The notes beneath the pieces were generated by a model. The model was not told where the DNA came from and ran no database searches. It saw only the letters and a program-made list of their open reading frames with translations. Below, one piece after another: positions 16,461-63,168 of a stretch of DNA of 64,000 nt. Positions within the stretch are counted from its first letter, which is position 1, and each line of letters starts with the position of its first letter. Origin of the DNA: a virus (taxonomy: Duplodnaviria > Heunggongvirae > Uroviricota > Caudoviricetes). The position numbers and the translations under genes were made by a program. The DNA is taken from IMG/VR virus record IMGVR_UViG_2718217789_000006. One strand, written 5' to 3'.

Positions 16461-16852
16461 AACATACTGATATCCGTGCGGCAGTGCTGGATGCACTGGA
16501 GCTGCATGAACACGGGGCGACGCTGTTTGATGGTCGCCCCGTTGTTTTTGACGAAGAGGATTTTCCGGCCGTCGCGGTTTATCTGACGGATGCAGAGTAT
16601 ACCGGTGAAGAGCTGGATGCAGATACCTGGCGGGCCACACTGCATATTGAGGTGTTTTTACCGGCACAGGTACCGGATTCGGAGCTTGATCAGTGGATGG
16701 AAAGCCGGATTTATCCGGCGGTGACTGCGATCCCGGCACTGGCAGACCTGATTACGACGATGGTTACGCAGGGCTATGAGTATCGTCGTGATGACGATAT
16801 GGCGTTATGGAGTTCTGCGGATCTGACTTATTCCATTACATACGAGATGTGA
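16457..16852 (+). CDS. U: Tail terminator protein U
   Basis: Matches lambda gpU. Confidence 0.9.
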
Positions 16853-22105: not shown

Positions 22106-22115
22106 ATCCTGTTTT

Positions 22116-22859: not shown

Positions 22860-23434
22860 ACACGGCAGCGGAAGCCATCCGTGCCCTGTCGCTGCAGATG
22901 CCGGGATTCCGCCGTCAGATGAACGAAGGCTGGTACCAGATACGTATTCGCGGTGAGGACACGGCACCGGAGGCGGTGTACGCCCGTCTTCACGAACCTC
23001 TGGGTGAGGGGGCGGTCATCCATATTGTGCCGCGACTGGCCGGAGCCGGAAAGGGCGGACTGCAGATTGTGCTGGGGGCAGCAGCCATCGTGGGCTCTTT
23101 CTTCACCGCCGGCGCAACGATGGCGTTGTGGGGCGCAGCCCTGAGTGCCGGAGGGCTGACTGCCACCACGATGCTGTTCTCACTGGGTGCCAGCATGATA
23201 CTGGGCGGTGTGGCCCAGATGCTGGCACCGAAGGCAAAAACACCGGAGTACAGGGCGACGGATAACGGTAAACAGAACACGTATTTTTCGTCACTGGATA
23301 ACATGATTGCCCAGGGGAACCCGATGCCGGTGCCTTATGGTGAAATGCTGGTTGGTTCACGACGGATATCCCAGGACATCAGCACCCGTGATGAGGGCGG
23401 AGACGGGAAAGTGGTGGTTATCGGGCGGGGATGA
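22757..23434 (+). CDS. I: Tail assembly protein I
   Basis: Lambda gpI-like; overlaps K 3' end. Confidence 0.9.
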   Translation: MATTNAFCLASPPLARICLHGDLQRFGRRLSLYVNTAAEAIRALSLQMPGFRRQMNEGWYQIRIRGEDTAPEAVYARLHEPLGEGAVIHIVPRLAGAGKGGLQIVLGAAAIVGSFFTAGATMALWGAALSAGGLTATTMLFSLGASMILGGVAQMLAPKAKTPEYRATDNGKQNTYFSSLDNMIAQGNPMPVPYGEMLVGSRRISQDISTRDEGGDGKVVVIGRG

Positions 23435-23674
23435 AAATAAAAAAATCCCGCAGAGTTAGCGGAGCTGCGGGAGAGAACGATGAAGATTAACGTTATGGAG
23501 TTATTTTTCAGGCATCAAAAAAGTAATGCAGCGTCATTATTGCGGCTACAGGCAATTGCCGGAAATGTGAAGAGTTTCAGAAATTTTATTCCGTCATGAC
23601 ACAGGCACCCTCCGGGGTGCCTGTTGTTTTCTGGCATAAACAGATTCAGACATCAGACAGGAGAGGGGGACAGA

Positions 23675-33714: not shown

Positions 33715-36111
33715 TTAAGAATCAGCCTGACTCGGGATCAGTTTTTGCCAGATAACTGAAACGTATTTTGCCTGGTAACGGGCGTCATCAAGTGCATTAT
33801 GGCGCTCACCTTCGAATGGAATAGCCGTTCTGGCATCGAAGTCTATGGCTTTCCCCAGCTCAACGATTGTGCGCACATCGCGATCGTTGTAGTAACGCCA
33901 CGGGCAGGGGATCCCCTGCCGTTCGTATGAACGGCGCAAAATCGTGTTGTCGAAGTTGGCTCCATTTCCCCAGACCTGAACAAAGAATTCACCGGAGTTT
34001 TCGTCGATAAATTCCCGCAATTGTAACAGTGCATCATCTAACGGGATTTCATCGGTCATAATGGCAGATTGCGCTTCGCGTGATTGCTTAAGCCACCATT
34101 TAATGGTGTCCCGATCAATGACTCCGCCAGCAGTTTCCAGATCGATAGTCTTACTAAATTCCGGTCCCATATCTCCGGTTTGCGGATCGAAAAATATTGC
34201 ACCTATTGAGATGATCGGGGCATCAGGATTTTTTCCCATGGTTTCAAGGTCGATCATTAGATGGTCACACGTCCTGCTGGTGGATGTGATAACGTGATGA
34301 CCGTTCACCTTAATTGAGTGATCTGCCGTCTCGCCAGTTTCATTATCGCTATCGTGATGCTGATTGCCGCCAGTGTTCTCCTTGTGTGGATGTTCAGCGC
34401 CTTCCATTTCCTCCGGATCATCTTCCTGAACTTCAACCAGGTTCTTGTCATCGAATGTTTCCTGGTATGTTGCGTCGCCCATCACCGCGCCACAATCAGG
34501 GCAGTTGCCGCCGCCGGTCTGACCGCAGGTGGTGCAGATCTTTTCCGGTTCCTGTTGCACTACTGGTTCAGGTTGTTTCGTTTCTGGCTGATTCTGGTAC
34601 ACAGAATCGCGGGTCTGGATCCCCTTAATCCATTTCGGATCATTCGGGTCGCTAATCCCTTCAACAAATTCTCCGCGAGAGGCAGCCAGTAATTTGTCTG
34701 CATCGACAGGATTTTGGGGCGGAATGTTTTTCCGGGCTTCATGGAGTTCTGCCCGCAGTTTCTGATATTTCGCATCAACAGAATTTACCTGTGACTGAGC
34801 ATCCAGCGGCTGCGTGTCCTGATGATGTTCAGTTGCATCCGGTTCCACTGTTTCAGCCGTTGCCTGTTCATCTGCCATTGCGCAAGATGGTTGCGGTTTT
34901 TCTTCATCATTTTCTTCTTCTGTTTCCTGCTTAGCAGCCAGTTCGCGGTTAACTTCTTCCAGGATATCTTTTTCCGGTGTATGTCGTGCAGCAGTGAGAG
35001 TTTCCTTGCTGGGGTTCTCGTGATCAGTCTCCGTTAAGTAGGCGTTGATATACCCCTGAAGGCGTCCCGGGTAGTGATAAAACTCAGGGTGAGCGCTCCG
35101 GATAAGTGCAAAAATAGCGGCGCGGGAATAGTCCAGAATACCCGGGGTTGCGCGAAGTGCTGCGGACCATTCTTTGAACGGACTTTCTCTTTTCAGGACG
35201 ATTTCTTTTGCGCGACGATAAACGCTGCCCGGAATTTCATAAATATTAAAATCCATCGGAAGTGTGGCTGCTGCAATCTCCACATCCAGCGTATCGAAGG
35301 TGTGTACTAAATTCGGATTGCGATCGGTTTTGTTCCCGCCACCGGCATTTGCACCGGAAGCCGTACGGGTGATACGCGAAACACGATTTCCTTTCATCCA
35401 CTCTTTTGTCAGCAGACCCCGATCAGTGTAGTCAGCGTCCAGGTATGCCTCGAAAAAAGCAGTTATCAGTCCCAGGTCTGAATTACCGGGATTAGGGAAA
35501 ACTTTGTCAGTGTCGCGTGCCAGTTTATGAAGGTCGCGAATCTCCAGCGGGTCGAGCAGCTTTGTGTTGTGGGAAATGGCCAGGGCAGTAACAGCCGGCA
35601 GTTCTTCCGCCCGTGCTATATGTAATGCCTGAAGTTCTTCCCGTGCAACGTGCGTTACTGGTTTTTCGCTGCCGTGTTGCGCAAGCCAGCGAATGGGCAG
35701 CTCCTGACCAGAAACCGGCAGGAGCATATTCTCCTCAATCTCCGTCATGTCTTCGCCGTTGACGTTGGTATTGTCAGTACTGGCTGGTTTCTCCTGCACG
35801 GAGGGAGAGGGCGCGATAAATACCATTGTAATGCCATCTTCCCCGCCTTTTTCGTATCGGTTGCAGAATTCGGTATCAAACACGCCTTCAGGTGGAAGGT
35901 CATTCACAACGGGTAAATGGACGCGAACGGGTTTTTTAAAGTCGTCTTCATCATAATCGTTGTCATCCATTGCGGTAATGCAGCGGGAGATGGCAACAGA
36001 TAATTTTTTTGCTGTAGTCCAGTAAAAACCACCTTTAATTCCCAGACGTTTTCTGACTTTGTCATTTTTTGCTTCGCAATATAGCGCAAATTCTTCTTTA
36101 TCAGTGCTCAT
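33715..36111 (-). CDS. Large early protein with C-terminal DEDDh-type 3'-5' exonuclease domain
   Basis: 798 aa; C-terminal …MIDLETMG…VWGNGANFD…HNALDDARY… (DnaQ-like motifs); acidic central region; CxxC…CxxC zinc-ribbon-like motif [16 protein letters not shown]. Confidence 0.65.
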
Positions 36112-43494: not shown

Positions 43495-44619
43495 ATGCGG
43501 ATGAAAGAATTAAATAAATTCAGAGTGATAGACCTCTTTTGTGGGGCAGGTGGATTATCTTATGGTTTTCTTCATGGAGAGATGTCTGACTACTTTGAAA
43601 GTATCCTTGCTATTGATAATAATGCTGCAGCTATAAATACCTACAATGCCAATTTTGGTTTGCATGGAGTTCAGGCAAATATTGAGGAGTGGGCATCCAG
43701 CAATACTGTTCCTGAGGCTGATGTGGTCATAGGTGGCCCCCCGTGTCAGGGATTCAGTTTATTGAATAAGAATCGTTATGGTGATCACCGAAGAGCATTG
43801 TGGGAGCCTTATATGGATGTCATTGAGCGTTCAAGGGCTTGTATGTTCGTCATGGAAAATGTCCCCGGATTGCTGATAAGCGATGAGTTTGCGGACATTA
43901 CGTTTAGAGCGAAATCCATGGGCTTTATTCTGCTTAATCCAATGGTGTTGAATACTGCTGACTATGGAGTACCTCAGACAAGAAAACGAACGATAGCAAT
44001 CGGTATCAAACGAGAACTCTTCGATGTGCATAGTATTCCGGCGTTCCCGCCAGCACCAACGCATCGTTCCCCTGATAAGGATGTCGCTTTGCCTGAATGG
44101 GTCTGTACGCGTGATGCAATTGGTGACTTACCTGCTCCTGTTGGAACTGATATTCGTAATGAACTTCCTCCGCTGAACTTACATTTTGGGCGTAATCCCA
44201 CACCTGTTTCTCTGGAGCGATATAAAGCGGTTCCACCAGGAGGTAACCGTTTCGATTTACAGAAAAAAAGACCTGATATAACCCCGGCGTGCTGGCTAAA
44301 AAAGAAATCTGGAGGGACCGATTTGTTTGGACGTCTGTGGTGGGACAGACCTTCAGTAACGATTCGTACTGAGTTTTTCAAACCGGAGAAAGGGCGATAT
44401 TTACATCCGGAAGAGGATCGGCCAATAACTCATCGTGAGGCAGCGAGATTAATGTCTTTTCCTGATAATTTCATTTTTACCGGTTCAAAAACTGAGATTG
44501 CAAAGCAGATCGGGAATGCTGTTCCACCGCTATTTGCGGCAAAAATCGCACAATATGTGTATGGAGTTTTGCAGGGACGGTATAAGAATAACATCAGTAA
44601 GAATAGTCAAGCAGCCTGA
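43495..44619 (+). CDS. DNA cytosine-5 methyltransferase
   Basis: Motif I DLFCGAGG, motif IV GGPPCQGFS, motif VI ENVPG; GAGG RBS 7 nt upstream. Confidence 0.85.
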   Translation: MRMKELNKFRVIDLFCGAGGLSYGFLHGEMSDYFESILAIDNNAAAINTYNANFGLHGVQANIEEWASSNTVPEADVVIGGPPCQGFSLLNKNRYGDHRRALWEPYMDVIERSRACMFVMENVPGLLISDEFADITFRAKSMGFILLNPMVLNTADYGVPQTRKRTIAIGIKRELFDVHSIPAFPPAPTHRSPDKDVALPEWVCTRDAIGDLPAPVGTDIRNELPPLNLHFGRNPTPVSLERYKAVPPGGNRFDLQKKRPDITPACWLKKKSGGTDLFGRLWWDRPSVTIRTEFFKPEKGRYLHPEEDRPITHREAARLMSFPDNFIFTGSKTEIAKQIGNAVPPLFAAKIAQYVYGVLQGRYKNNISKNSQAA

Positions 44620-44632
44620 AGGAAATCCAGAA

Positions 44633-45511
44633 ATGAATGGAGATTTGGTTGACAGCATAGTTGGTTTTGCTGAAGCCAGAAAGGAGTTTCATGCCCAATT
44701 GTTACTGAATACGCTCACAATTAATACTGCCGGAGTTGTTAGTAACGCAGATAGCAGTAACAAAAACAGTAAAGCTATAGCAAGAGAAATTGCTCGCTTC
44801 TTGCAGGCTGAAACGATTGGTGAACGTGTTGCAGGGCAAACATCTGGTAATCAGTTTGAGAGTATCTGCGCAGAGTTTATAGAAAAAACCTTTTTTAAAC
44901 TCAGCCACTTACGCCCTGGAAAATGGAATGTACATCAGGTTTCTGGTAGAAACAGATTAGAGATAGCTAAATATGAACAATATGCCCATCTTATAGCATT
45001 GGATAGTGCTGCAAAAAGTAATCCTCAGCTAGCTGCTGCACTGGGGAGTGATTATACGATTTCACCAGATATTATTGTTGAAAGAGAACCTGAATGTGAT
45101 CAAGTTATCAACAGTCCTGAATTACTGGTGGATGATTCTGTTACCCGCATGTCAGCTCTCAGGAGTTCGAATGGTGGGAAACCAATATTACACGCAAGTA
45201 TTTCCTGCAAATGGACAATAAGAAGCGACCGGGCCCAGAATGCTCGTTCTGAGGCATTAAATCTTATTCGCAACCGTAAGGGAAATCTCCCTCATGTAAT
45301 GGTTGTTACTGCTGAGCCTACTCCAAGTCGTCTGGCGTCTATTGCTCTTGGTACTGGTGATATAGATTGCGTGTATCATTTTGCGCTTTATGAACTTATA
45401 TCAGCAGTTGAAATACTGGGGCTCAGCGATGCAGCTGACATGCTTTCCGTGATGGTTAATGGTAAAAGATTAAAGGATATTTCTGATCTTCCCTTGGATC
45501 TTGCAGTCTGA
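44633..45511 (+). CDS. Putative type II restriction endonuclease paired with the methyltransferase
   Basis: 292-aa ORF starting 13 nt after the methyltransferase stop with AAGGA RBS; PD…K-like segment (…SPDIIVERE…ISCKWT…); assignment by context. Confidence 0.45.
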   Translation: MNGDLVDSIVGFAEARKEFHAQLLLNTLTINTAGVVSNADSSNKNSKAIAREIARFLQAETIGERVAGQTSGNQFESICAEFIEKTFFKLSHLRPGKWNVHQVSGRNRLEIAKYEQYAHLIALDSAAKSNPQLAAALGSDYTISPDIIVEREPECDQVINSPELLVDDSVTRMSALRSSNGGKPILHASISCKWTIRSDRAQNARSEALNLIRNRKGNLPHVMVVTAEPTPSRLASIALGTGDIDCVYHFALYELISAVEILGLSDAADMLSVMVNGKRLKDISDLPLDLAV

Positions 45512-48784: not shown

Positions 48785-49843
48785 ATGCTTAATACTGTAA
48801 AAATATCCAGCTGTGAGTTAGTCAACGCCGACTGCCTGGAATTTATCCGGTCGTTACCCGAAAATTCTGTTGACCTGATAGTCACGGACCCGCCGTACTT
48901 TAAAGTGAAGCCCGAGGGCTGGGATAACCAGTGGACGGGTGATGAGGATTACCTGAAATGGCTGGACCAGTGTCTGGCGCAGTTCTGGCGGGTGCTGAAA
49001 CCTGCCGGAAGTCTTTACCTGTTCTGTGGCCATCGCCTGGCATCTGATATCGAAATCATGATGCGTGAACGCTTCAGTGTGCTGAACCATATTATCTGGG
49101 CGAAGCCGTCCGGACGCTGGAACGGGTGCAACAAGGAAAGCCTGAGGGCGTATTTCCCCGCCACAGAGCGCATTCTGTTCGCGGAACATTATCAGGGGCC
49201 GTATCGTCCGAAAGATGCCGGGTATGAGGCGAAGGGCAGGGCACTGAAACAGCATGTGATGGCTCCGCTGATTTCTTACTTTCGTGATGCGCGTGCTGCC
49301 CTGGGGATAACGGCAAAACAGATAGTGGATGCCACAGGAAAGAAAAACATGGTGTCGCACTGGTTCAGTGCCAGTCAGTGGCAGCTACCGAACGAAAGCG
49401 ATTATCTGAAATTACAGGCGCTGTTTGCCCGGGTGGCAGAAGAGAAGCATCAGCGGGGTGAACTGGAGAAGCCCCACCACCAGCTGCTGGAGACGTATAC
49501 TTCACTGAACCGGCAGTATGCGGAACTACAGAGTGAATATAAGCATCTGCGGCGGTATTTTGGCGTGACGGCGCAGGTGCCGTACACGGATGTGTGGACG
49601 CATAAACCGGTGCAGTACTATCCCGGGAAACATCCGTGCGAAAAACCGGCAGAAATGCTGCAGCAGATAATCAGTGCGAGCAGTCGTCCGGGTGACCTGG
49701 TTGCAGATTTCTTCATGGGGTCGGGTTCGACAGTCAAAGCCGCGATGGCGCTGGGGCGTCGTGCAACTGGCGTTGAGCTGGAGACTGAACGTTTTGAGCA
49801 GACGGTCAGGGAAGTACAGGATTTAGTCAGTCAGAACGGATGA
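48785..49843 (+). CDS. Orphan amino-group DNA methyltransferase (N6-adenine or N4-cytosine, DPPY type)
   Basis: N-terminal DPPY motif (…LIVTDPPYF…), C-terminal AdoMet motif (…DFFMGSGST…); no adjacent nuclease. Confidence 0.75.
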   Translation: MLNTVKISSCELVNADCLEFIRSLPENSVDLIVTDPPYFKVKPEGWDNQWTGDEDYLKWLDQCLAQFWRVLKPAGSLYLFCGHRLASDIEIMMRERFSVLNHIIWAKPSGRWNGCNKESLRAYFPATERILFAEHYQGPYRPKDAGYEAKGRALKQHVMAPLISYFRDARAALGITAKQIVDATGKKNMVSHWFSASQWQLPNESDYLKLQALFARVAEEKHQRGELEKPHHQLLETYTSLNRQYAELQSEYKHLRRYFGVTAQVPYTDVWTHKPVQYYPGKHPCEKPAEMLQQIISASSRPGDLVADFFMGSGSTVKAAMALGRRATGVELETERFEQTVREVQDLVSQNG

Positions 49844-49951
49844 TATTGCAGAATTAACCGGGTATCAGGTACGCCCCGAAAATTTTAAATGTCTCACAAT
49901 TCAGACGGTTGACAGTTGTCTGGTTTGCGGGGAGTTTGTTAAAAGAAACTG

Positions 49952-50346: not shown

Positions 50347-52293
50347 ATGACATTTAAACATTACGATGTGGTCAGGGCGGCATCGCCGTCAGACCTTGCT
50401 GATGCACTTGCGCAAAAAATTCGTGAAGGATGGCAACCATACGGTGGGCCGTTTTCTTCGTATACGGATGATGGCGCAGCACTTATTCAGGCGATTGTCG
50501 CAGAAGGTGATGTGAGCACACCTGTTGTGGTGAAGCCGACAGGTGGAGAAGGTGCAGTAATCAGTGCCACCAGCGACCCGGAGTATTACTTTGTTGTGGT
50601 TCTGGCAGGGCAGTCAAACGGCATGTCGTATGGTGAAGGTCTTCCGCTGCCGGAGACATATGACCGTCCGGAGCCGCGTATTAAGCAACTGGCGCGTCGC
50701 AGTACGGTGACACCGGGTGGTGTCGCCTGTAAATATAACGACATCATTCCGGCGGACCATTGTCTGCATGATGTGCAGGACATGAGCCGCCTTAACCATC
50801 CGAAAGCGGACCTGTCAAAGGGGCAGTACGGAACCGTGGGGCAGGGGCTGCATATCGCCAAAAAATTGCTGCCGTTTATACCGGCGAATGCGGGCATTCT
50901 GCTGGTTCCGTGCTGTCGTGGTGGTTCAGCGTTCACCACCGGAGCTGATGGCACATACAGTGACGCGAGTGGTGCCTCGGAGAATTCAACCCGCTGGGGT
51001 GTGGACAAGCCGCTGTATAAGGACCTTATCGGTCGAACAAAAGCAGCACTGAAGAAGAATCCGAAAAATGTGCTGTTTGCCGTGGTGTGGATGCAGGGGG
51101 AATTTGATTTTGGCGGTACGCCGGCAAATCACGCAGCACAGTTTGGTGCGCTGGTTGATAAATTCCGTGCAGACCTGGCGGATATGGCAGGTCAGTGCGT
51201 CGGTGGCTCTGCTGGCGGTGTTCCCTGGATATGTGGAGATACGACGTATTTCTGGAAGCAGAAGAACGAATCCACGTACCAGACGGTGTACGGCAGCTAC
51301 AAAAACAAAACGGAAAAGAATATCCATTTCGTACCGTTCATGACGGATGAGAACGGGGTGAATGTGCCGACGAACAAACCGGAAGAAGACCCGGACATTC
51401 CGGGTATCGGATATTACGGTTCGAAATGGCGTGACAGCTCAGCCACCTGGACGTCACAGGACAGGGCGAGCCATTTCAGTTCATGGGCTCGCCGCGGGAT
51501 TATTTCCGACCGTCTGGCAACGGCGATTTTGCGCCATGCGGGAAGAGTGGCGCTAAACGCGGGGGCATCATCGACAGTATCAGAGGTGCGCCCGTCATCG
51601 CCTTCCGGTGCAGAAGCCACAGGCGTCACAACACTGCTCTCTTACCTTGCCAGCGAGTCAGAGGGAAGCCTGAAAGTACAGGGATGGTCAGCCAGTGGCG
51701 GCAAGGCAGAAGTGGTCAGCGATGCGGAGGGAACCGGAGGTAAGGCAGTGAAGCTGACCAAGGAAGCCGGTAAAAGCAGCTGGGTGCTGGAGTACGCCGC
51801 GGGCAACGGTGCGGCTCTGTTACAGAAAGGGGGGCAGATTCGCTGCCGCTTTAAGGTTTCGGGAGCGCTGGCTGCGAACCAGTATGTTATGGCGTTTTAC
51901 TGGCCGGTATCTTCACTGCCACAGGGCGTTGCCCTGACCGGAGACGGGGGGAATAACCTGCTGGCAGCGTTCTACATCCAGACAGATGCAAAAGACCTGA
52001 ATGTGATGTACCACAATGCGAAAGTGGCGACAAACAACCTGAAACTGGGAAGCTTTGGCGCATTTGATAACGAATGGCATACGCTGGCTTTCCGCTTTGC
52101 CGGGAATAACAGCCTTCAGGTGACGCCGGTTATTGATGGTCAGGATGGCACACCGTTCACGCTGACGCAGTCACCGGTCAGTGCCTTTGCGGCGGATAAA
52201 CTGCATGTGACAGACATTACCAGAGGTGCGACTTACCCGGTACTGATAGACAGCATTGCGGTGGAAGTGAACAGCACAGACACTGCGGCATGA
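50347..52293 (+). CDS. NanS-p-like sialate O-acetylesterase (intact copy)
   Basis: 648 aa; first late gene; SGNH-esterase-like core (…VVVLAGQSNGMSYGEG…); paralog of 1773..3623. Confidence 0.7.
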   Translation: MTFKHYDVVRAASPSDLADALAQKIREGWQPYGGPFSSYTDDGAALIQAIVAEGDVSTPVVVKPTGGEGAVISATSDPEYYFVVVLAGQSNGMSYGEGLPLPETYDRPEPRIKQLARRSTVTPGGVACKYNDIIPADHCLHDVQDMSRLNHPKADLSKGQYGTVGQGLHIAKKLLPFIPANAGILLVPCCRGGSAFTTGADGTYSDASGASENSTRWGVDKPLYKDLIGRTKAALKKNPKNVLFAVVWMQGEFDFGGTPANHAAQFGALVDKFRADLADMAGQCVGGSAGGVPWICGDTTYFWKQKNESTYQTVYGSYKNKTEKNIHFVPFMTDENGVNVPTNKPEEDPDIPGIGYYGSKWRDSSATWTSQDRASHFSSWARRGIISDRLATAILRHAGRVALNAGASSTVSEVRPSSPSGAEATGVTTLLSYLASESEGSLKVQGWSASGGKAEVVSDAEGTGGKAVKLTKEAGKSSWVLEYAAGNGAALLQKGGQIRCRFKVSGALAANQYVMAFYWPVSSLPQGVALTGDGGNNLLAAFYIQTDAKDLNVMYHNAKVATNNLKLGSFGAFDNEWHTLAFRFAGNNSLQVTPVIDGQDGTPFTLTQSPVSAFAADKLHVTDITRGATYPVLIDSIAVEVNSTDTAA

Positions 52294-54025: not shown

Positions 54026-54493
54026 ATGAACCGCGTACTGTGCGTGGTCATCATTGCCCTGCTGGTGGCCTGTGGTGCGCTTAGTCTGGGGCTGAATCAT
54101 TACCGTGATAACGCCATAACCTACAAAGAGCAGCGCGATAAAAAAGTCAGTGAGCTGGAGCAGGCAAATGCAACCATTACTGATATGCAGCAGCGCCAGC
54201 GTGATGTTGCTGCACTCGATGCAAAATACTCGAGGGAATTAGCCGATGCGAGAGCTGAAAATGAAACTCTGCGTGCTGATGTTGCCGCTGGTCGTAAGCG
54301 CCTGCGGATCAACGCCACCTGCCCCGGTACCGTGCGTGAAGCCACCGGCACCTCCGGCGTGGATAATGCAACCGGCCCCCGACTGGCAGACACCGCTGAA
54401 CGGGATTATTTCATCCTCAGAGAACGGTTGATGATGATGCAGAAGCAGCTGGAAGGGGCGCAGGAATATATCCGCACTCAGTGTATTAACTAG
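54026..54493 (+). CDS. Rz: Rz i-spanin
   Basis: Paralog of the prophage-1 Rz. Confidence 0.8.
   Translation: MNRVLCVVIIALLVACGALSLGLNHYRDNAITYKEQRDKKVSELEQANATITDMQQRQRDVAALDAKYSRELADARAENETLRADVAAGRKRLRINATCPGTVREATGTSGVDNATGPRLADTAERDYFILRERLMMMQKQLEGAQEYIRTQCIN
54261..54431 (+). CDS. Rz1: Rz1 o-spanin lipoprotein
   Basis: Embedded +1 frame, lipobox LVVSAC. Confidence 0.75.
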   Translation: MKLCVLMLPLVVSACGSTPPAPVPCVKPPAPPAWIMQPAPDWQTPLNGIISSSENG

Positions 54494-54516
54494 TATTTTT
54501 GTTATCCGGAGAATGC

Positions 54517-54741
54517 ATGAAGAAATTACTGGTAACCGTAAAGCCTTTTCAGGGAACAATTCCGTTCCGTATTTTGCAGCGTGGTCGTGTTCTTGTTGAA
54601 GGTTCGTTCAGTGGTAAATGTACGCAATTACACTCCCGGACCTTTCAGGTGAATGCCACGAATGAAGAACTAACCGTGGAGTGTACGATGAATGCCGCTA
54701 AATGCCGCATGGCATCCGCTGCATTACAGCCAGTGTGTTGA
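54517..54741 (+). CDS. Hypothetical small protein downstream of Rz
   Basis: ATG with GGAGA RBS; Cys-containing 74-aa product without signal peptide. Confidence 0.4.
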   Translation: MKKLLVTVKPFQGTIPFRILQRGRVLVEGSFSGKCTQLHSRTFQVNATNEELTVECTMNAAKCRMASAALQPVC

Positions 54742-54949
54742 GCGACCTTATTATCCATGCGCGGTATTGTCGCCGTATTCCTGCATTAACAGAGACCGCA
54801 GCCCGACAGGGAGACTCCTCTGCGCGAGTGTGCGGGGATAATCAAAAACGATACACACCGGGGTTTACCGCGTTAACGGAGCGCGGCGTTGTCCCCTCAT
54901 AGTCGCCAGTCCGGTGCGATGGTGGAAGAAACTGGATTTTGTTGCAAAT

Positions 54950-55015
54950 GATAACCATTATCATTTTGCGGGTCCTCCTGGTGGGGTGGGCCTGAACACG
55001 GGGCGGGCGGCGCGG
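54950..55015 (+). other. Candidate cos/packaging region of prophage 2
   Basis: GATAACCATTATCATTTTGCGGGTCCT matches the prophage-1 cosQ-like motif; followed by GC-rich GGGGCGGGCGGCGCGG, 145 nt upstream of the terminase small subunit. Confidence 0.35.
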
Positions 55016-55159
55016 AAAAAGGCGCATTTTTTGATTTTTATGGCACCATCACCACCAGTGTAAGTTATTGATATATAGAAAAATAAAAATTTTTAGTGTC
55101 GAATCTGGTTGTTTTTTGTTCATCACTGGTGTGTGTTTACATAATTTTCAGGGGGAGTT

Positions 55160-55636
55160 ATGGATCGTGAATTAAAAAATCTGCATCTGAATATTTCCCA
55201 ACTGGCCGCATTATCCGGTGCTCATCGACAGACTGTTGCGGCTCGGGTAAAAAACATAAGCCCAGCCGGTGGTCATGAGAGCAATCTCAAACTGTACCGA
55301 CTGACAGATATCCTTGCCGAGCTGATGAAAGCTCCTCTGCCTGTAGATAACGAGGAAATGGATCCTCATGCGCGTAAAGCATGGTACCAGTCAGAACGTG
55401 ACCGACTGAAATTTGAGCAGGAAACTGGTCAGCTTGTGCCAGTCAGTGATGTCAGGCGGTCCTTTTCTGTCGTGGTGAAAGCGATAGTTCAGGTACTGGA
55501 AACCTGGCCTGACCGGCTGGAGAGGGACAGGGGGTGGACCGCATCACAACTGAATGAAGTACAGATTGTGGTTGATGAGATCCGCGACACACTGGAAAAG
55601 GCAGTCATTGACTGTTGTGATGAGGCCGATATGTGA
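55160..55636 (+). CDS. Terminase small subunit (non-lambda type)
   Basis: 158-aa ORF with N-terminal HTH-like segment, immediately upstream of and overlapping the large subunit. Confidence 0.6.
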   Translation: MDRELKNLHLNISQLAALSGAHRQTVAARVKNISPAGGHESNLKLYRLTDILAELMKAPLPVDNEEMDPHARKAWYQSERDRLKFEQETGQLVPVSDVRRSFSVVVKAIVQVLETWPDRLERDRGWTASQLNEVQIVVDEIRDTLEKAVIDCCDEADM

Positions 55637-57756
55637 ATCAGGTGAACGAGAGCCATAGCCGCGCATCCGATATCTGGCGCGAAGTGGCCTCGCTGTTTCG
55701 CCCACCTGGCCGGTTACCAGTAGCGGAAGCCATCAGGCGTTATATGCGGGTTCCACGGGGAGCCAATACTTCCGGTCCGTGGGAGTCATCGCTGACGCCC
55801 TATATGATTGACCCCATTAATACATTATCAGCCCGTGAATATGACGCGGTGGTGTTTGTGGGACCTGCGCGAACCGGGAAAACCGAAGGGCTGATTGATG
55901 GCTGGATTGTGTACGGCATCATCTGTGATCCGGCGGATATGCTGGTGGTGCAGATGACTGAGACGAAGGCGCGTGAGCATTCCAGAACGCGTCTTTCCAG
56001 GACGTTTCGCCACAGTCCGGAGGTCAGCAAGCGCCTCAGTCCTTCCCGTAATGACAACAACGTCCACGATAAAATGTTTCTTGACGGCTCCTTCCTGAAG
56101 ATTGGCTGGCCGTCGATCACCGTCTTTTCCTCTTCGGATTACCGTCGTGTGGCGCTGACGGATTATGACCGTTTCCCTGAAAACGTGGACGGGGAAGGGG
56201 ATGCCTTCACGCTGGCCTCAAAGCGTACCACCACCTTTATGTCCTCGGGGATGACCCTGGTCGAGAGTTCACCGGGGCGGGATATCACCGATACCAAATG
56301 GCGTTGTGGTGGCGCACATGAGGCACCGCCAACAACGGGGATCCTGTCACTGTATAACCGGGGAGACCGCCGCCGGTGGTACTGGCCGTGTCCGCACTGC
56401 GGGGAATATTTTCAGCCGGTGATGGATAACATGACCGGATACCGGAATAACCCGGATTTTGTGGCTGCCGGTCAGGCTGCCCGTCTGATGTGTCCGCATT
56501 GTCGCGGGCTGATTGCCCCTGAGCAGAAACGCGAACTGAATAACCAGGGGATCTGGCTTCGTGAAGGTGAACGGGCGGCGGCGGACGGCAGTATCACCGG
56601 AACGCCACGAAACTCCCGGATTGCGTCATTTTGGATGGAGGGGCCAGCTGCGGCGTTTCAGACCTGGGAACAACTGATTTTTAAACTGCTGGCGGCAGAA
56701 GAAGAGTATGAGCGAACCGGCAGTGAAGAGACTCTGAAAGCGGTGGTGAACACCGATATCGGACGACCCTATCTGCCCCGTTCAGCCACGGAACAGCGTA
56801 AAAGTGAACTGCTTGAACAGCGTGCCGAGCCGTTTCCCCGGCGATCTGTGCCGGATGGTGTGCGTTTTATTGAGGCAACGGTTGACGTACAGGGCGGTAA
56901 AAATCGCCGTTTTGTTGTGCAGATCACCGGATACGGAGAGCAGGGGGAACGCTGGATTGTTGATCGCTACAACATCCGGCATTCACTGCGCTGCAGTCCC
57001 AACGGTGAAAGTCTGCCGGTTGATCCGGCGGCATATCCGGAGGACTGGGATTTGTTGCTGACGGATGTGTTCCATAAAACATGGCCGCTGGCTTCTGATC
57101 CGGATGTGCGCATGCGTCTGATGGCCATGGCGGTGGATACGGGAGGGGAAGCCGGGGTGACAGATAACGCCTATCGTTTCTGGCGTCGTTGCCGGAGTGA
57201 CGGACTGGGCAACAGGGTGTTTCTGTTCAAGGGGGATGGACTTCGCCGTGACAGGCTGATTAACCGAACCTTCCCGGATAATACCGGCAGAAGTGCCCGC
57301 CGTGCCAGAGCCAGTGGCGATGTCGCGCTGTGGCTGGTTCAGACGGATGCGTTTAAGGATCGTGTAAATAATGCCCTGTGGCGTGACACACCAGGGCCGA
57401 ACTATATCCACTTTCCCGACTGGCTGGGGCGGTGGTTTTACGATGAGCTGACCTATGAAGAGCGCGGCAGTGACGGAAAATGGCGAAAACCGGGCAGGGG
57501 CGCTAACGAAGCGTTTGACCTGCTGGTTTATGCGGATGCGCTTGCCGTTCTGCATGGTTACGAAAAGATCCGCTGGCCCTCCGCACCGGACTGGGCACAG
57601 CGGGAAACGTGGCTCGTCTTCCCGCAGGAGCGTTCTGGTGAAACGGTATCCCCGGAACTGACGGCCGGGGCAGAAAAACGCCGTCGCCGGAAGAAAAAAC
57701 TGTGGACGGAGCGTGCGGAAGATAATCCATGGATAACATCAGGAGGCTGGTTGTGA
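55633..57756 (+). CDS. Terminase large subunit (GTG start)
   Basis: 707 aa; Walker A VGPARTGKT. Confidence 0.8.
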   Translation: MNQVNESHSRASDIWREVASLFRPPGRLPVAEAIRRYMRVPRGANTSGPWESSLTPYMIDPINTLSAREYDAVVFVGPARTGKTEGLIDGWIVYGIICDPADMLVVQMTETKAREHSRTRLSRTFRHSPEVSKRLSPSRNDNNVHDKMFLDGSFLKIGWPSITVFSSSDYRRVALTDYDRFPENVDGEGDAFTLASKRTTTFMSSGMTLVESSPGRDITDTKWRCGGAHEAPPTTGILSLYNRGDRRRWYWPCPHCGEYFQPVMDNMTGYRNNPDFVAAGQAARLMCPHCRGLIAPEQKRELNNQGIWLREGERAAADGSITGTPRNSRIASFWMEGPAAAFQTWEQLIFKLLAAEEEYERTGSEETLKAVVNTDIGRPYLPRSATEQRKSELLEQRAEPFPRRSVPDGVRFIEATVDVQGGKNRRFVVQITGYGEQGERWIVDRYNIRHSLRCSPNGESLPVDPAAYPEDWDLLLTDVFHKTWPLASDPDVRMRLMAMAVDTGGEAGVTDNAYRFWRRCRSDGLGNRVFLFKGDGLRRDRLINRTFPDNTGRSARRARASGDVALWLVQTDAFKDRVNNALWRDTPGPNYIHFPDWLGRWFYDELTYEERGSDGKWRKPGRGANEAFDLLVYADALAVLHGYEKIRWPSAPDWAQRETWLVFPQERSGETVSPELTAGAEKRRRRKKKLWTERAEDNPWITSGGWL

Positions 57757-57965
57757 GCACAGAAGAAGCCAGAGAAATGATACAGCGGTACCGTGAAGCG
57801 GAAATGGCCGTACTGGAGGGAAAGTCTGTCACCTTCAACGGGCAGCAACTGACGCTGGAAAGCCTTTCTCAGATCCGCGCCGGACGTCAGGAGTGGGAAC
57901 GCAGGCTTGCCGCGATGGTGAGCCGCAGGCGGGGAAAACCGGGATTTAAACTGGCGAGGTTTTAA
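57753..57965 (+). CDS. gpW-like head-tail joining protein (GTG start)
   Basis: 70 aa from GTG with AGGAGG RBS; similar size and position to lambda W. Confidence 0.5.
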   Translation: MSTEEAREMIQRYREAEMAVLEGKSVTFNGQQLTLESLSQIRAGRQEWERRLAAMVSRRRGKPGFKLARF

Positions 57966-59467
57966 TGGCAATTATTGATGATGTGATCGGCGTGTTTTCC
58001 CCCGGGTGGAAAGCAGCCAGACTGCGTTCAAGGGCGTTAATCATGGCCTATGAGGCGGTGAAACCGACCCGGACACATAAAGCCCGGCGGGAAAATCGCT
58101 CTGCTGATCAGCTCAGTAAATACGGTGCGGTTTCCCTGCGGGAGCAGGCCCGTTTTCTGGATATCAATCATGACCTGGTGATTGGTGTGTTTGACAAGCT
58201 GGAAGAGCGGGTGATTGGTGCCAGGGGAATTATTGTGGAGCCTCAGCCATTACGAAAAAACGGGGAAATGGCGGCTGAGCTGGCTGCGGATATCCGCCGT
58301 TTGTGGGCTGAATGGTCCGTGAGTCCGGATGTGACAGGGCAGTATACCCGTCCTGTGCTTGAACGTTTACTGCTGCGGACCTGGCTGCGGGATGGTGAAG
58401 TGTTTGCGCAGATGGTCAGTGGTGCGGGAAACGGTCTGGAACGGACGGCGGGAGTGCCATTCTGGCTTGAGGCGATGGAGCCGGATTTTGTTCCCATGCG
58501 CACTGATGAATCCGCCGGACTGAATCAGGGGGTTTTTCTTGATGAGTGGGGAAGACCGAAAAAATATCTGGTTTATAAAAATTATCCGGTCAGCGGCCGG
58601 CAGAGTGATACGAAAGAAATCGCTGCCGGAAAAATGATCCACCTGAAGTTCACTCGTCGTCTGCATCAGACGCGAGGCTCATCCATGTTATCGGGGGTGC
58701 TGATGCGGATCAGTGCCCTTAAGGAGTATGAGGATGCGGAACTGACAGCGGCGCGTATTGCTGCGGCGCTGGGACTGTATATCCGTAAAGGTGACGGACA
58801 GGACTATGAAGATCCGGGGAGCAAAGAGACCGAGCGGGAAGTCCATATCACCCCGGGTATTATTTATGACGATTTGCGCAAGGGCGAGGATATCGGCATG
58901 GTCAAATCTGACCGTCCCAATCCCAACCTTGAAACTTTCCGCAACGGCCAGTTGCGTGCAGTGGCAGCAGGCAGTCGTCTGAGTTTTTCCAGTGCGGCGC
59001 GTAACTATAACGGCACCTACAGCGCCCAGCGGCAGGAGCTGGTCGAGTCCACGGATGGTTACCTGATCCTGCAGGACTGTTTTATTGGCGCGGTAACCCG
59101 CCCGGTGTACCGGACATGGCTGAATATGGTGGTTGCGGCAGGTCTGCTGAAAATTCCGGCGGATGTGGAGATGAAAACGCTATATAACGCGACGTATTCC
59201 GGTCCGGTGATGCCGTGGATCGACCCGGTTAAGGAAGCTGAAGCCTGGAGAATTCAGATCCGGGGTGGTGCAGCGACAGAATCTGACTGGGTGCGTGCTG
59301 GTGGGCGCAATCCGGATGAGGTCAAACGTCGCCGCAAGGCTGAAATTGATGAAAACAGCAGACTGGGGCTGGTCTTTGATACTGACCCCGTCAACGACAA
59401 AGGAGGCAACAGTGCCGGAACTGAACGACAGTATCAGCGCGACACCGAAAGCCAGCATGAAGAATAA
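57965..59467 (+). CDS. Portal protein
   Basis: 500-aa ORF between terminase and protease/capsid. Confidence 0.75.
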   Translation: MAIIDDVIGVFSPGWKAARLRSRALIMAYEAVKPTRTHKARRENRSADQLSKYGAVSLREQARFLDINHDLVIGVFDKLEERVIGARGIIVEPQPLRKNGEMAAELAADIRRLWAEWSVSPDVTGQYTRPVLERLLLRTWLRDGEVFAQMVSGAGNGLERTAGVPFWLEAMEPDFVPMRTDESAGLNQGVFLDEWGRPKKYLVYKNYPVSGRQSDTKEIAAGKMIHLKFTRRLHQTRGSSMLSGVLMRISALKEYEDAELTAARIAAALGLYIRKGDGQDYEDPGSKETEREVHITPGIIYDDLRKGEDIGMVKSDRPNPNLETFRNGQLRAVAAGSRLSFSSAARNYNGTYSAQRQELVESTDGYLILQDCFIGAVTRPVYRTWLNMVVAAGLLKIPADVEMKTLYNATYSGPVMPWIDPVKEAEAWRIQIRGGAATESDWVRAGGRNPDEVKRRRKAEIDENSRLGLVFDTDPVNDKGGNSAGTERQYQRDTESQHEE

Positions 59468-61436
59468 ATCCTGGTTCAGGATGCTGGCGGGTAGTCAGGG
59501 TGAGGCAGATATTTATATTTATGACGAGATTGGTTTCTGGGGAGTTACCGCGAAGCAGTTTGTCAGCGAACTGAATGCACTGGGTGATATCACCCACATT
59601 AATCTCCATATCAATTCACCGGGTGGCGATGTCTTTGAAGGCATCGCCATTTTTAATGCCCTGAAAAATCAGGGGGCGACCATTACCGTGTATGTGGATG
59701 GCGTTGCCGCCTCGATGGCATCTGTGATTGCGATGGCCGGTGATACGGTCATTATGCCGGAAAATGCCTTCATGATGATCCATAAGCCATGGGGATTCAG
59801 TGGCGGGGATGCTGAGGATATGCGCAGTTATGCCGATTTGCTGGATAAAGTCGAATCGGTACTGTTGCCAGCCTATGCGCAGAAAACCGGAAAAACCACC
59901 GATGAAATTGCCGCCATGCTGGCGGATGAAACCTGGATGTCCGGTGCCGAATGTCTGGCACACGGATTTGCTGACCAGGTGACACCCGCTGTTGAGGCAA
60001 TGGCATGTATTCAGTCAAAACGTACAGAGGAATTTAAAAAGATGCCGGAATCCATCCGAAACATGATTACTCCGCCACGCAACAGTGCCCCGCGTGATAC
60101 CACAGTGACAATCCCTGCACCGGAGGTAACAGAACCATCACCGGTACCGGCAGTGTCTGATGAGGCGACCATTCGCGCCCGCGTTATGGCAGAACAGAAA
60201 GCCCGCATGTCAGGCATTAACGATCTGTTTGCCATGTTCGGTGGTCGCTATCAGACGCTTCAGGCACAGTGCGTGGCTGATCCTGACTGTTCGCTGGAAA
60301 TGGCCCGTGAACGACTGCTGAATGAAATGGGCAAGGAGTCCTCGCCGACCAACAAAAATACACCGGCCCATATTTATGCCGGAAACGGCAATTTTGTGGG
60401 GGACGGGATCCGCCAGGCGATGCTGGCCCGTGCCGGATTTGAAAATGTCGAGAAGGATAACGCCTATAACGGGATGACCCTGCGTGAATGGGCTCGCATG
60501 TCACTGACGGAGCGCGGTATTGGGGTGGCCAGTTATAACCCCATGCAGATGGTCGGGCTGGCGCTGACGCACAGCACCTCTGATTTTGGCAATATTCTGC
60601 TGGATGTGTCGAACAAGGGGCTGATCCAGGGCTGGGAGGAATCAGAAGAAACCTTCCAGAAGTGGACCCGTAAGGGACGCCTGTCAGACTTCAAAACAGC
60701 GTATCGCGTGGGGATGGGCGGTTTTGGTTCTCTGCGCCAGGTTCGTGAGGGGGCGGAGTATAAATACATCACCACCTCAGATCGCAAGGAGACCATTGCA
60801 CTGGCCACTTACGGGGAGATTTTCTCCATCACCCGCCAGGCCATTATCAATGATGATCTGAATATGCTGGTGGACGTGCCGATGAAGATGGGGCGTGCGG
60901 CGAAGGCAACGATTGGTGACCTGGTCTACAAGGTGCTGACGGATAACCCGAAACTGTCCGACGGTAAGGCGCTGTTCCATGCCGATCACAAAAATATTGC
61001 CACCGGGGGGATCTCCGTTTCCGGACTGGATGCGGCCCGTCAGATGATGCGCCTGCAGAAAGAAGGCGATCGTGCCCTGAATATCCGTCCGGCCTTTATG
61101 CTGGTACCGGTGGCACTGGAGACGGTGGCGAACCAGACCATCAAATCGGCCAGTGTGAAAGGGGCGGATGCAAACGCCGGTGTCATTAACCCTATCCAGA
61201 ACTTTGCTGAGGTGATTGCAGAAGCGCGTCTTGATGCGGCAGACCCGAAAACCTGGTATCTGGCGGCGGCACAGGGCACTGACACCATTGAAGTGGCCTG
61301 GCTGGATGGTGTGGACACGCCATACATTGATCAGCAGGAAGGTTTCACCACTGACGGCATTGCCACAAAAATCCGTATTGATGCCGGAGTGGCACCACTT
61401 GACTGGCGCGGGCTGGTGCGTTCGTCGGTGGCCTGA
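59412..61436 (+). CDS. Fused ClpP-like prohead protease and major capsid protein
   Basis: N-terminal ClpP-like serine-protease region (…INSPGGDV…VDGVAASMASVIAMAG…), C-terminal capsid-like region; AGGAGG RBS before GTG 59412 (alternative ATG 59457). Confidence 0.65.
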   Translation: MPELNDSISATPKASMKNKSWFRMLAGSQGEADIYIYDEIGFWGVTAKQFVSELNALGDITHINLHINSPGGDVFEGIAIFNALKNQGATITVYVDGVAASMASVIAMAGDTVIMPENAFMMIHKPWGFSGGDAEDMRSYADLLDKVESVLLPAYAQKTGKTTDEIAAMLADETWMSGAECLAHGFADQVTPAVEAMACIQSKRTEEFKKMPESIRNMITPPRNSAPRDTTVTIPAPEVTEPSPVPAVSDEATIRARVMAEQKARMSGINDLFAMFGGRYQTLQAQCVADPDCSLEMARERLLNEMGKESSPTNKNTPAHIYAGNGNFVGDGIRQAMLARAGFENVEKDNAYNGMTLREWARMSLTERGIGVASYNPMQMVGLALTHSTSDFGNILLDVSNKGLIQGWEESEETFQKWTRKGRLSDFKTAYRVGMGGFGSLRQVREGAEYKYITTSDRKETIALATYGEIFSITRQAIINDDLNMLVDVPMKMGRAAKATIGDLVYKVLTDNPKLSDGKALFHADHKNIATGGISVSGLDAARQMMRLQKEGDRALNIRPAFMLVPVALETVANQTIKSASVKGADANAGVINPIQNFAEVIAEARLDAADPKTWYLAAAQGTDTIEVAWLDGVDTPYIDQQEGFTTDGIATKIRIDAGVAPLDWRGLVRSSVA

Positions 61437-61523
61437 TAACCGCGTTATCACAATCACTGCCCGAAAGGGCTTTTTTTATGCCTGAAAAACAGCCCCACAG
61501 GGGCTGTCCGGAGAAACAGCATT

Positions 61524-61850
61524 ATGGCGAAAAATTTTGTACAGGACGGTACCACCATTGAACTGGTGAATGCCGGAGATCAGACCATCCTGAGCGGTGC
61601 TGCGGTGGTGGTCGGCAGTATGGTGGCCGTGGCCATTACCGATATTCCTGCCGGTGAGGCCGGTGACGGTTTTGCCGAAGGCGTGTTCCTGCTGCCCAAA
61701 CAGTCTGCTGACGACATTCAGTCCGGCGCGGTGGTTTATCTGAAGGACGGGGTTGTGCAGCTGGCTGCAGACGGTGCGGTGGCAGCGGGGGTAGCCTGGG
61801 AAAATGCCCCTGCAAACAGCGCCACTGTGGCGGTAAAAATCAATGTCTGA
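61524..61850 (+). CDS. Putative head decoration or completion protein (Gly/Ala-rich, 108 aa)
   Basis: ORF directly downstream of the capsid gene. Confidence 0.45.
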   Translation: MAKNFVQDGTTIELVNAGDQTILSGAAVVVGSMVAVAITDIPAGEAGDGFAEGVFLLPKQSADDIQSGAVVYLKDGVVQLAADGAVAAGVAWENAPANSATVAVKINV

Positions 61851-62124
61851 TCTGTTTACGCGAATGTGTTGCCGGATGGACGTGGCGACCGTTCGGGTGA
61901 TGGGCAAACAGGCGGAGATTAACGGCGTCGTGTACGACGTGATGCCGGAGGAAGAGTCCGCGGAGATGGGGGCGCTTTCGGGCAGCCAGTTGTCACTGGT
62001 GGTGTTTTCAGCCCGGTACCGTCCGGCCCGTCATGATGTTGTTGTGTTTGCGGGGCGCACACTGACGGTGACCCGTTATGACACGTACAACGGTAAACCC
62101 CGGATTTTTGTCGAACAGGAATGA
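61843..62124 (+). CDS. Putative head-tail joining protein
   Basis: 93-aa ORF overlapping neighbours, immediately upstream of Z. Confidence 0.45.
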   Translation: MSDLFTRMCCRMDVATVRVMGKQAEINGVVYDVMPEEESAEMGALSGSQLSLVVFSARYRPARHDVVVFAGRTLTVTRYDTYNGKPRIFVEQE

Positions 62125-62750
62125 GTATGGCAATAAAAGGTCTGGCGCAGGCCATGAAAAATCTGGATGCAATTGATCGCCGTGCCGTTCCCCGGGCCTC
62201 TGCCACGACACTGAACCGCGTGGCGGGGGCCATTATTGCGAAAACGGCCTCTTCAGTTGCCAGGGAGCTGGCCGTTCCCCGTCGTCTTATCCGTGCCCGC
62301 ATCCGGTTAAGTCCGGCACGACCGGATAAGGTTTACGCAAAGGTTTACATCAATACCGGCAACCTGCCCGCCATCAAACTGGGGGAGGCCCGCGTTCGAC
62401 TTTCCCGCAGAAAACGGAGAAAGAAAGGACAGCGTGCGGCCCTGAAAGGGGGCGGCAGTGTGCTGATTGTGGGGAAAAGACGGATCCCGGACGCCTTTAT
62501 CACCCGGCTGGCTAACGGACGCTGGCATGTGATGCAGCGTATGCCGTGGGCATCATCATCCACCGGCGCGGACAGCAAAGGGAGGCCGAAACGCCACCGT
62601 CTGCCGATCGAAGTGGTGAAGATTACGACTGCCGGACCGCTGGCAGAAACCTTTGAACGTGAACGGGACCGGATGTACCGGGAAAAATTACCGGCGCAGA
62701 TGATGAAAGCCATGACGCATCAGTTACGCCTGGTGCTGAAAAGAAAATGA
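62121..62750 (+). CDS. Z: Minor tail protein Z
   Basis: Lambda gpZ-like, including the basic …SRRKRRKKGQRAALKGGGSVL… segment. Confidence 0.85.
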   Translation: MSMAIKGLAQAMKNLDAIDRRAVPRASATTLNRVAGAIIAKTASSVARELAVPRRLIRARIRLSPARPDKVYAKVYINTGNLPAIKLGEARVRLSRRKRRKKGQRAALKGGGSVLIVGKRRIPDAFITRLANGRWHVMQRMPWASSSTGADSKGRPKRHRLPIEVVKITTAGPLAETFERERDRMYREKLPAQMMKAMTHQLRLVLKRK

Positions 62751-62762
62751 CTGGGAGGGTGT

Positions 62763-63161
62763 ATGAAACACCGTGAAATACGGGCGGCAGTTCTGTCTGC
62801 CCTGAAAGAAAATATTTCTGAGAGGGTGAGCTGGTTTGACGGTCGCCCGGTTTTTATTGATGAACAGGAACTGCCTGCTGTTGCTGTTTACCTGACAGAT
62901 GCGTCTGCTGCTGACGAGTTCGTTGATGAGGGAACCTGGGAGGCGACACTGCATATTGAGGTTTTTCTCAGGGCAAAAGAACCGGACTCGGCACTGGATA
63001 TGTGGATGGAAGAAAAAATTCTTCCTGCGCTGGAGGCAGTTCCCGGGCTCAGTGCATTACTGCTGAAGATGAATCTTCAGGGGTATGACTACCGCCGGGA
63101 TGATGAGTTTATGATGTGGGGATCGGCAGATCTCCTGTGGAAAATTACCTACGAGATGTGA
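62763..63161 (+). CDS. U: Tail terminator protein U
   Basis: Lambda gpU-like (…AVAVYLTDA…HIEVFL…). Confidence 0.85.
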
Positions 63162-63168
63162 GGACGAT

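Follow-up and report, generated by a model that had tools for sequence, protein, structure and literature searches.

Two lambdoid prophages in tandem in E. coli O157:H7 carry different heads and share a V-G patch joined at the U/V boundary

Lambdoid phage genomes are put together from exchangeable parts, as the modular theory of lambdoid mosaicism has it, and the HK97-HK022 comparisons of Juhala and Hendrix are reportedly the classical case. Relaxed homologous recombination by Rad52-like recombinases is said to be a source of phage mosaicism, and the lambdoid prophage pool of O157:H7 Sakai (Sp3-Sp15) was reportedly laid out by Hayashi and Ohnishi in 2001. Recombination among O157 and other lambdoid prophages is already documented (PMC2669165, PMC9836094). 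In lambdoid phages the head and tail genes co-transfer as modules (PMC9836094), and the prophages of O157 Sakai have nearly identical segments in common and recombine (PMC2669165, Asadulghani et al. 2009). Some of the Sakai prophages have lambda-like head regions, and others are organised differently (PMC2669165). For the FII-Z-U-V junction of lambda, it is known that gpU has two contact faces, one for gpFII and one for gpV (PMC10721106). Another described layout is that of Gifsy-2 and mEp460, in which the genes run in the same order from a DUF1441 small terminase through lambda-type Z, U, V, G, T and H. Here we describe a locus in which a prophage with a lambda head and a prophage with a head of the Gifsy-2 type stand side by side.

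The window, by which we mean the whole 64,000-nt stretch of DNA that was analysed, consists of two lambdoid prophages of E. coli O157:H7 in tandem. Positions 39000-64000 (25,001 nt) recur with 0 mismatches in the chromosome sequence (NZ_CP062771.1) of O157:H7 strain Z570, and positions 1-32038 are 99.62% identical over 32 kb to prophage Sp11 of O157:H7 Sakai. For all sequence past 64000 we use NZ_CP062771.1, given its exact match to the window over 25 kb, and not the window itself. Prophage 1 is Sakai-Sp11-like and has a true lambda head; prophage 2, an stx-negative relative of VT1-Sakai and the Stx2a phages, has a Gifsy-2/cdtI/mEp460-type head. The latter is an additional tandem prophage, because in Sakai Sp11 adjoins ydfJ directly, whereas here prophage 2 lies between the Sp11-like prophage and ydfJ. 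With the Sakai pool the locus has in common that prophage 1 is 99.6% identical to Sp11, and that the region of prophage 2 from the decoration gene to V is 100% identical to Sp15 (VT1-Sakai). The features of both prophages that we refer to are collected in Table 1.

Table 1. Features of the two tandem prophages, in positions of the window.
Feature	Position	Strand	Details
Prophage 1	up to ~32000		Virion module Nu1-A-W-B-C-D-E-FI-FII-Z-U-V-G-T-H-M-L-K-I-J-Lom-Stf, then three NleG genes
Divergent Z-U cassette, prophage 1	15792-16840	+	Left edge 15792-15807, common to the lambda and Stx1_9793 comparisons
Partner of the near-identical block, prophage 1	16841-17691	+	V 16860-17612; G start 17626
K-I-J-Lom-Stf tract, prophage 1	22239-28686	+	0 mismatches to the prophage 2 tail (read from NZ_CP062771.1)
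Prophage 2	begins with integrase, 32076-33371	- (integrase)	Extends beyond the window end to ydfJ
Intact 798-aa ORF, prophage 2	33715-36111	-	RefSeq name 'exonuclease'
ClpP-like prohead protease/major capsid fusion, prophage 2	59457-61436 (longest ORF from 59265)	+	Pfam CLP_protease 1e-36, Phage_capsid_4 9e-56
GCCC-GAAA-GGGC hairpin + T7, capsid/decoration spacer	61459-61477	+	Read by eye; present in the fold, overall z = -1.8 (weak)
Head decoration ('cement') protein, DUF2190	61524-61850	+	Pfam Phage_cement_2 6.6e-19; PHROG 122 head decoration 4e-39
FII-like head-tail joining (head closure) protein, 93 aa, Gifsy-2 STM1035 family	61843-62124	+	Pfam Gifsy-2 6.7e-14
Tail completion protein Z, prophage 2	62127-62750	+	Pfam Minor_tail_Z 2.4e-54; BLASTP against prophage 1 Z 40%, E = 2e-43
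Tail terminator U, prophage 2	62763-63161	+	Pfam Phage_tail_U 2.6e-52; 58% aa and ~63% nt identity to prophage 1 U
Identity breakpoint, prophage 2 against prophage 1	63144-63150 (prophage 1: 16835-16841)		12-18 nt before the U stop
Near-identical V-G block, part in the window	63150-64000	+	Contains V (63169-63921) and the G start
ATGTGAGGACG: last U codon, stop, V Shine-Dalgarno	63156-63166	+	Alignment columns 117-127, invariant in 6/6 U/V variants
V, prophage 2	63169-63921	+	Pfam Phage_TTP_12; 100% aa identity to prophage 1 V
G start, prophage 2	63935-	+	Within the near-identical block

The original prediction for this DNA described prophage 2 as a non-lambda head, with a different terminase, a different portal and a fused protease/capsid gene, joined to a lambda-type tail whose Z differs from that of prophage 1. 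The parts list holds up. Over 54487-62833, blastn detects no similarity between the DNA of the two prophages, and a uniformly high identity across the heads, which would have spoken against a mosaic, is not seen. By BLASTP against prophage 1, the large terminase of prophage 2 is 24% identical to A (8e-19) and its portal is 22% identical to B (9e-7); the W-like protein has a marginal match to W (0.03), and the protease/capsid and FII-like proteins have no match. For the protease/capsid fusion in particular, neither blastn nor BLASTP finds similarity to C/E of prophage 1; the gene falls in PHROG 133, and RefSeq also annotates it as such a fusion in the identical genome. For the FII-like protein there is a match to PDB 2PP6, a Gifsy-2 structure (3.3e-13), and one to Phage_attach below threshold (0.0043). 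The protein is in PHROG 153, which is also matched by the lambda-type FII of prophage 1 (2e-6), and its kinship to FII is visible at the profile level only. Downstream of it, Z, U and V of both prophages are in the lambda families, with Pfam scores of 184.5 bits for Z (cut-off 23.9), 176.9 bits for U (cut-off 25) and 229.9 bits for V (cut-off 26.1).

The label 'non-lambda head' nevertheless seems to overstate the difference, because three proteins of prophage 2 are distant lambda homologues, namely its large terminase with GpA domains, its portal of the lambda family and its W-like adaptor. The small terminase, protease, capsid and decoration protein are of families different from those of lambda. 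Judged from these proteins, the divergence between the two heads would be graded, with no seam. Prophage 2 has the order DUF1441 TerS, GpA TerL, W-like, portal, ClpP-MCP, decoration, FII-like, Z, U, V, G, and its head is assigned to the Gifsy-2/cdtI/mEp460 type by the Pfam and PHROG matches, by PDB 2PP6, and by synteny with Gifsy-2 and mEp460. The FII-like gene is found in Fels-1 and cdtI too. The likeness has its bounds, as the FII-like proteins of Gifsy-2, Fels-1, cdtI and mEp460 are just 39-58% identical to that of prophage 2, and the V-G patch of prophage 2 is of the O157/Sp11 type, unlike theirs. The combination of a Gifsy-type head with a lambda-type tail is a standard and widespread layout that is already known, and it is not a fresh joint, because Gifsy-2 and mEp460 have the same gene order.

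What remains to be placed is the point at which the two prophages become nearly identical. We compared them ungapped at an offset of 46,309. Mismatches follow one another closely as far as 63143. A further one stands at 63149, and from there to 64000 the only one is at 63714, which leaves the part of the block inside the window identical to its partner in prophage 1 at 850 of 851 positions (99.88%). The maximum chi-square break falls after 63143, with mismatches at 115 of 310 positions on the left (37%) and at 2 of 857 on the right (0.23%). The value obtained, chi2 = 343, is attained in 0 of 2000 permutations, for which the maximum is 25.6. The abrupt switch that an identity comparison of the two prophages was expected to reveal is confirmed, but it is not where it had been put. 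The prediction had 99.9% identity from Z onward and a breakpoint inside or just past Z, assigned to 61437-62124. DNA identity is ~50% in Z and ~63% in U, and the joint lies in the last 18 nt of U, ~400 nt past the end of Z and ~1 kb past the end of 61437-62124. That interval opens at the stop codon of the protease/capsid fusion, continues with an 87-nt spacer, and contains the decoration and FII-like genes without Z. We looked for a breakpoint within it and found none, either against prophage 1, where blastn gives no similarity on either side, or against the relatives of prophage 2, where identity is continuous at 97-100%. The result thus gives the true position of the joint and a standard, widespread head/tail architecture around it, and amounts to little beyond bookkeeping.

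The near-identical block is short. Followed into the identical genome, the full run is 63150-64295, with 1 mismatch in 1,146 nt. From 64296 on, the identity between the two prophages decays through the 3' end of G and then T. In the T/H-5' region, at 186 mismatches per 500 columns, the two are unrelated, and identity comes back in patches through H, M and L. The shared block is a V-G patch, that is V and most of G, and falls short of a whole tail module, because divergence sets in again in T and at the 5' end of H. Of the tail-module exchange that had been proposed, it stands that tail DNA has been exchanged between lambdoid prophages with different heads; the extent does not, since the exchanged piece is this patch only (~1.15 kb).

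The joint between the prophage 2 type of U and this V is found well outside the present strain. VT1-Sakai (Sp15) carries the segment 61437-64000 (2,564 nt) at 100% identity, and several Stx2a/Stx2d phages and phage ASU11 carry it at 99.5-99.8%. Of 5,426 complete E. coli genomes, 527 contain the full length of a 401-nt probe over the U/V joint of prophage 2; O55:H7 CB9615 and O111:H8 are among them. The equivalent probe for prophage 1, which joins the prophage 1 type of U to the same V, is present at full length in 1,740 genomes of very diverse lineages. A query of 59000-64000 is covered to at least 80% by 530 of the 5,426 genomes, and it returns 376 records at 99% identity or more, a number that includes V-only matches. 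The edge at 63144 (query position 1708) recurs in phage matches that cover only the V end, in ~115 of 127 records (28 of 40 among the matches listed), and it recurs in E. coli genomes as well. The V allele is joined to at least three types of U, which are those of prophage 1 and prophage 2 and the lambda-type U of Stx1a phages, as in Stx1_9793. The U/V joint is old and widespread and predates this strain, because it is present in so many genomes and, unchanged, in VT1-Sakai.

If V had been copied from one prophage to the other in this chromosome, the two paralogues should be identical and their orthologues different. For the V-G block this is not what we find, as Sakai Sp11 and VT1-Sakai already have the same sequence (0-1 mismatches), and Sp11 in Sakai is a prophage without the prophage 2 neighbour. 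From V to H, prophage 1 follows Sakai Sp11 with 0-1 mismatches per 500 nt. From V to T/H-5' (to ~19700 in prophage 1 positions), prophage 2 follows VT1-Sakai and Stx2_12E129_yecE with 0-3 mismatches per 500 nt; its mismatches to these relatives, which themselves differ in patches, become more numerous in the 3' half of H. The identity of V is therefore a property of two phage lineages and not of conversion within this chromosome, because each prophage agrees with its own relatives across the block. The V allele is about equidistant (~75%) from the V of lambda and that of Stx2_14040, with an identity of ~76% to the first and of 67-84% to the second. We tried to polarise the V-G transfer with lambda, Stx2_14040 and 1720a-02, and V is about equally distant from all of them and gives no direction. 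The one hint of direction is the wider spread of the prophage 1 type of joint (1,740 against 527 genomes), by which V may be native to the lambda-head lineage.

A recent event is found in the distal tail. The K-to-Stf tract (~6.4 kb) has 0 mismatches between prophage 1 and prophage 2, and Sakai Sp11 differs from it at 72 sites; these distal-tail substitutions distinguish the Sp11-like prophage from the Sakai pool, and they match the neighbouring prophage. Over 16400-32000, prophage 1 has 103 substitutions relative to Sakai Sp11, and at 83 of them it agrees with prophage 2. The C-terminal part of J in prophage 2 is Sp11-like, with 129-247 mismatches per 500 nt to the relatives of prophage 2 itself. 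Only for the K-to-Stf tract are the paralogues identical and the orthologue different. This tract is the footprint of a recent gene conversion between the tandem prophages, and at least part of the conversion seems to have gone from the Sp11-like prophage into prophage 2. The recent conversion that had been proposed therefore survives for K to Stf, and is set aside for the U/V joint. Identical direct repeats of ~6.4 kb between tandem prophages are substrates for deletions and hybrid phages, and for large rearrangements of the kind known in O157, and such repeats can confound SNP-based outbreak typing as well as assembly.

Joints with other phages fall nearby, at other positions. Between C and FII, prophage 1 and lambda are 95-100% identical, until ~15790 at the 3' end of FII; past the left edge of its divergent Z-U cassette, the identity to lambda is 70-85% in Z and U and ~76% in V. 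The Stx1a phage Stx1_9793 has the head and the V-onward tail of prophage 1 at 99-100%, and between them a lambda-type Z-U cassette with its edges at 15792-15807 and 16756-16819. Stx2_14040 has the head and Z of prophage 2, and everything from G onward, at 99-100%, with a different U-V cassette bounded at 62707-62742 (the 3' end of Z) and ~64068 (the 5' part of G). A joint on the Z side, as had been predicted, is thus absent between the two prophages and present at the Z/U boundary against Stx2_14040-type relatives. The joints cluster near gene ends, but at no single nucleotide. We also considered a single crossover hotspot, which is rejected because the edges differ between comparisons.

In each of the six phages compared, the type of U tracks the type of head and FII, and V is exchangeable. 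In the complete genomes, the number with the prophage 2 type of U/V joint (527) is about the number that covers 59000-64000 (530). From these six phages and the two similar counts we infer that FII-Z-U travel with the head and that V is interchangeable, which fits the contacts of lambda gpU. For the loops of U, the expectation was that the V-contact loop would be the better conserved; between U types, the O-loop (FII contact) is identical at 9 of 14 residues and the E-loop (V contact) at 7 of 14, and the comparison gives no signal. The split between FII-Z-U and V is a small refinement of the functional module borders in lambda-like virions.

The explanation that we consider very probable is the usual lambdoid mosaic, in which an old joint at the U/V boundary arose by homologous recombination and the K-to-Stf conversion is separate and recent. 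The locus has an abrupt and well supported identity switch, a diverged flank that can still be aligned, and a block that has different neighbours in other phages. U is alignable without gaps right up to the edge, at the identities given in Table 1, and there is homeologous sequence on the diverged side. Step-like transitions near gene boundaries and one block with different neighbours are also the marks of classical lambdoid mosaicism, from which this case differs in nothing essential; here the functional split is at U/V, and not between the last head gene and Z. Under this explanation, lambdoid phages and prophages would recombine by homologous or 'relaxed' homologous recombination, with RecA or with phage Rad52/RecET-type functions, the crossover would be resolved at the U/V boundary, and selection for functional protein interfaces would keep FII-Z-U with the head and leave V interchangeable. 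Homologous or relaxed recombination is the likeliest pathway, because the U-side flanks are homologous (~37% diverged) and the edge abuts a conserved stretch. By analogy, the 'exonuclease' of prophage 2 may be a gene of the RecE/Exo VIII type. Exo VIII-type systems have been described for Sakai Sp4, Sp6, Sp9-Sp12 and Sp14 (PMC2669165).

The conserved stretch could be given a more active part. The 11 nt of ATGTGAGGACG are the invariant core of a ~30-nt stretch that is conserved in six otherwise diverged U/V variants, the edge between prophage 1 and prophage 2 abuts it, and one V allele occurs with at least three types of U. On that basis the junction motif ATTAC.TA..A.ATGTGAGGACG.TATG would be a preferred crossover 'linker', as opposed to a place where random crossovers pass the filter of selection; the stretch from the U stop to the V start would be a recurrent linker, U/V would be the preferred reassortment point, and FII-Z-U would be a head-linked adaptor set. 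We regard this as doubtful. A U/V hotspot is not favoured because the edges are scattered: that between prophage 1 and Stx1_9793 is ~80-100 nt further upstream in U (16756-16819), and the cassette of Stx2_14040 spans both U and V, with its edges elsewhere. The conservation of a stop codon, a ribosome binding site and a start codon is moreover expected from translation alone. If the linker reading were true, FII-Z-U would allow heads of quite different kinds to be fitted to a single exchangeable tail tube.

It is distinctly unlikely that the co-resident prophages recently exchanged or converted the whole lambda-type tail, with a break in or just past Z. V at 99.9% identity, the many tail proteins that have the same RefSeq accession in both prophages, the 6.4 kb of distal tail without mismatches, and the joint at the Z/U boundary against Stx2_14040 are what such an exchange would offer. 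Against it, the edge is at 63144-63150 and the U before it is 37% diverged, the V block is already in orthologues elsewhere (Sakai Sp11, VT1-Sakai and Stx2 phages), T/H-5' is unrelated between the prophages, and the joint is in 527 genomes. An assembly artefact, in which repeated prophage tails were collapsed or cross-polished, has a very small probability still. O157 prophage repeats are notoriously hard to assemble, and the tract with 0 mismatches is long; yet the window is identical to a complete genome, and the query of 59000-64000 is covered to 80% or more in 530 of the 5,426 complete genomes. An artefact is unlikely because the joint is in hundreds of genomes and in independently sequenced phages, VT1-Sakai included, and because lineage-specific differences persist in G, T and H. 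Finally, strong purifying selection on the tail tube protein can be dismissed as the cause of the near-identity of V, for although V is structural, has many contacts, and has an N-terminal domain conserved across phages (Pfam match), it is excluded because the identity extends to synonymous positions (1 difference in 1,146 nt) while V is only ~76% identical to that of lambda and 67-84% to that of Stx2_14040, and the transition is a step and not a gradient.

A last observation concerns the spacer between the capsid and decoration genes. A consensus scan of 61000-64000 for promoters and terminators gives sites no more numerous than in shuffled sequence, and it does not pick up the hairpin of Table 1. 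The hairpin may be a leaky terminator, and mEp460 has an annotated rho-independent terminator at the equivalent place.

The tail regions of the two tandem prophages share a direct repeat of ~6.4 kb with 0 mismatches, at 22239-28686 of the window in prophage 1 and at about 29236-35700 of L001 in prophage 2 (L001 is numbered separately from the window; where the tail of prophage 2 runs past the end of the window, it was read from NZ_CP062771.1). The two copies are spaced about 46 kb apart, and this stretch of perfect identity is the footprint of gene conversion. It is also a ready substrate for deletion or for the formation of hybrid phages. The right ends of both prophages have in common about 400 nt of DinI-region sequence (window 31658-32000, L001 38560-38959). 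Since Sp11, the orthologue of prophage 1 in the E. coli O157:H7 strain Sakai, directly adjoins ydfJ there, it seems that prophage 2 inserted as a second element into one and the same site.

In relation to lambda, prophage 1, too, is a mosaic. Its head genes from C to FII are 95-100% identical to those of lambda, identity breaks sharply at 15792-15807, within the 3' end of FII, and its Z is without 45 nt that the lambda Z has.

Where the Stx2 phage Stx2_12E129_yecE has a 1,651-nt cassette with three tRNAs and stx2A/stx2B, prophage 2 has 33 nt, and the flanks of this replacement are 96-98% identical between the two. ARAGORN finds no tRNA genes in prophage 2, an stx-negative twin of an Stx2a phage. 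The positions of this replacement and of other features are collected in the table.

Selected features of the two prophages
Feature	Window position	Context	Annotation
tRNA-Arg (TCT)	618-694	next after the tRNA at 442-517	
Type II restriction-modification pair	43495-45511	prophage 2	DNA cytosine methyltransferase and NgoMIV-family endonuclease (RefSeq)
33-nt replacement	49857-49889	between DNA methylase gene 48785-49843 and 648-aa gene 50347-52293	
GCCC-GAAA-GGGC hairpin, then seven T's	61459-61477	just 3' of prophage 2 capsid gene	

At the position of the hairpin, phage mEp460, which has the same type of head gene order, carries an annotated rho-independent terminator; a consensus terminator scan did not detect the prophage 2 hairpin. 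The tRNA at 442-517 is called tRNA-Met with a CAT anticodon by ARAGORN, whereas RefSeq gives an ileZ-type tRNA-Ile, which presumably would be lysidine-modified. In prophage 1, an internal stop splits the DUF6645 gene (1773-3623, a pseudogene in RefSeq) into ORFs 1773-2153 and 2157-3623; its ~71% identical counterpart in prophage 2 (50347-52293) is uninterrupted.
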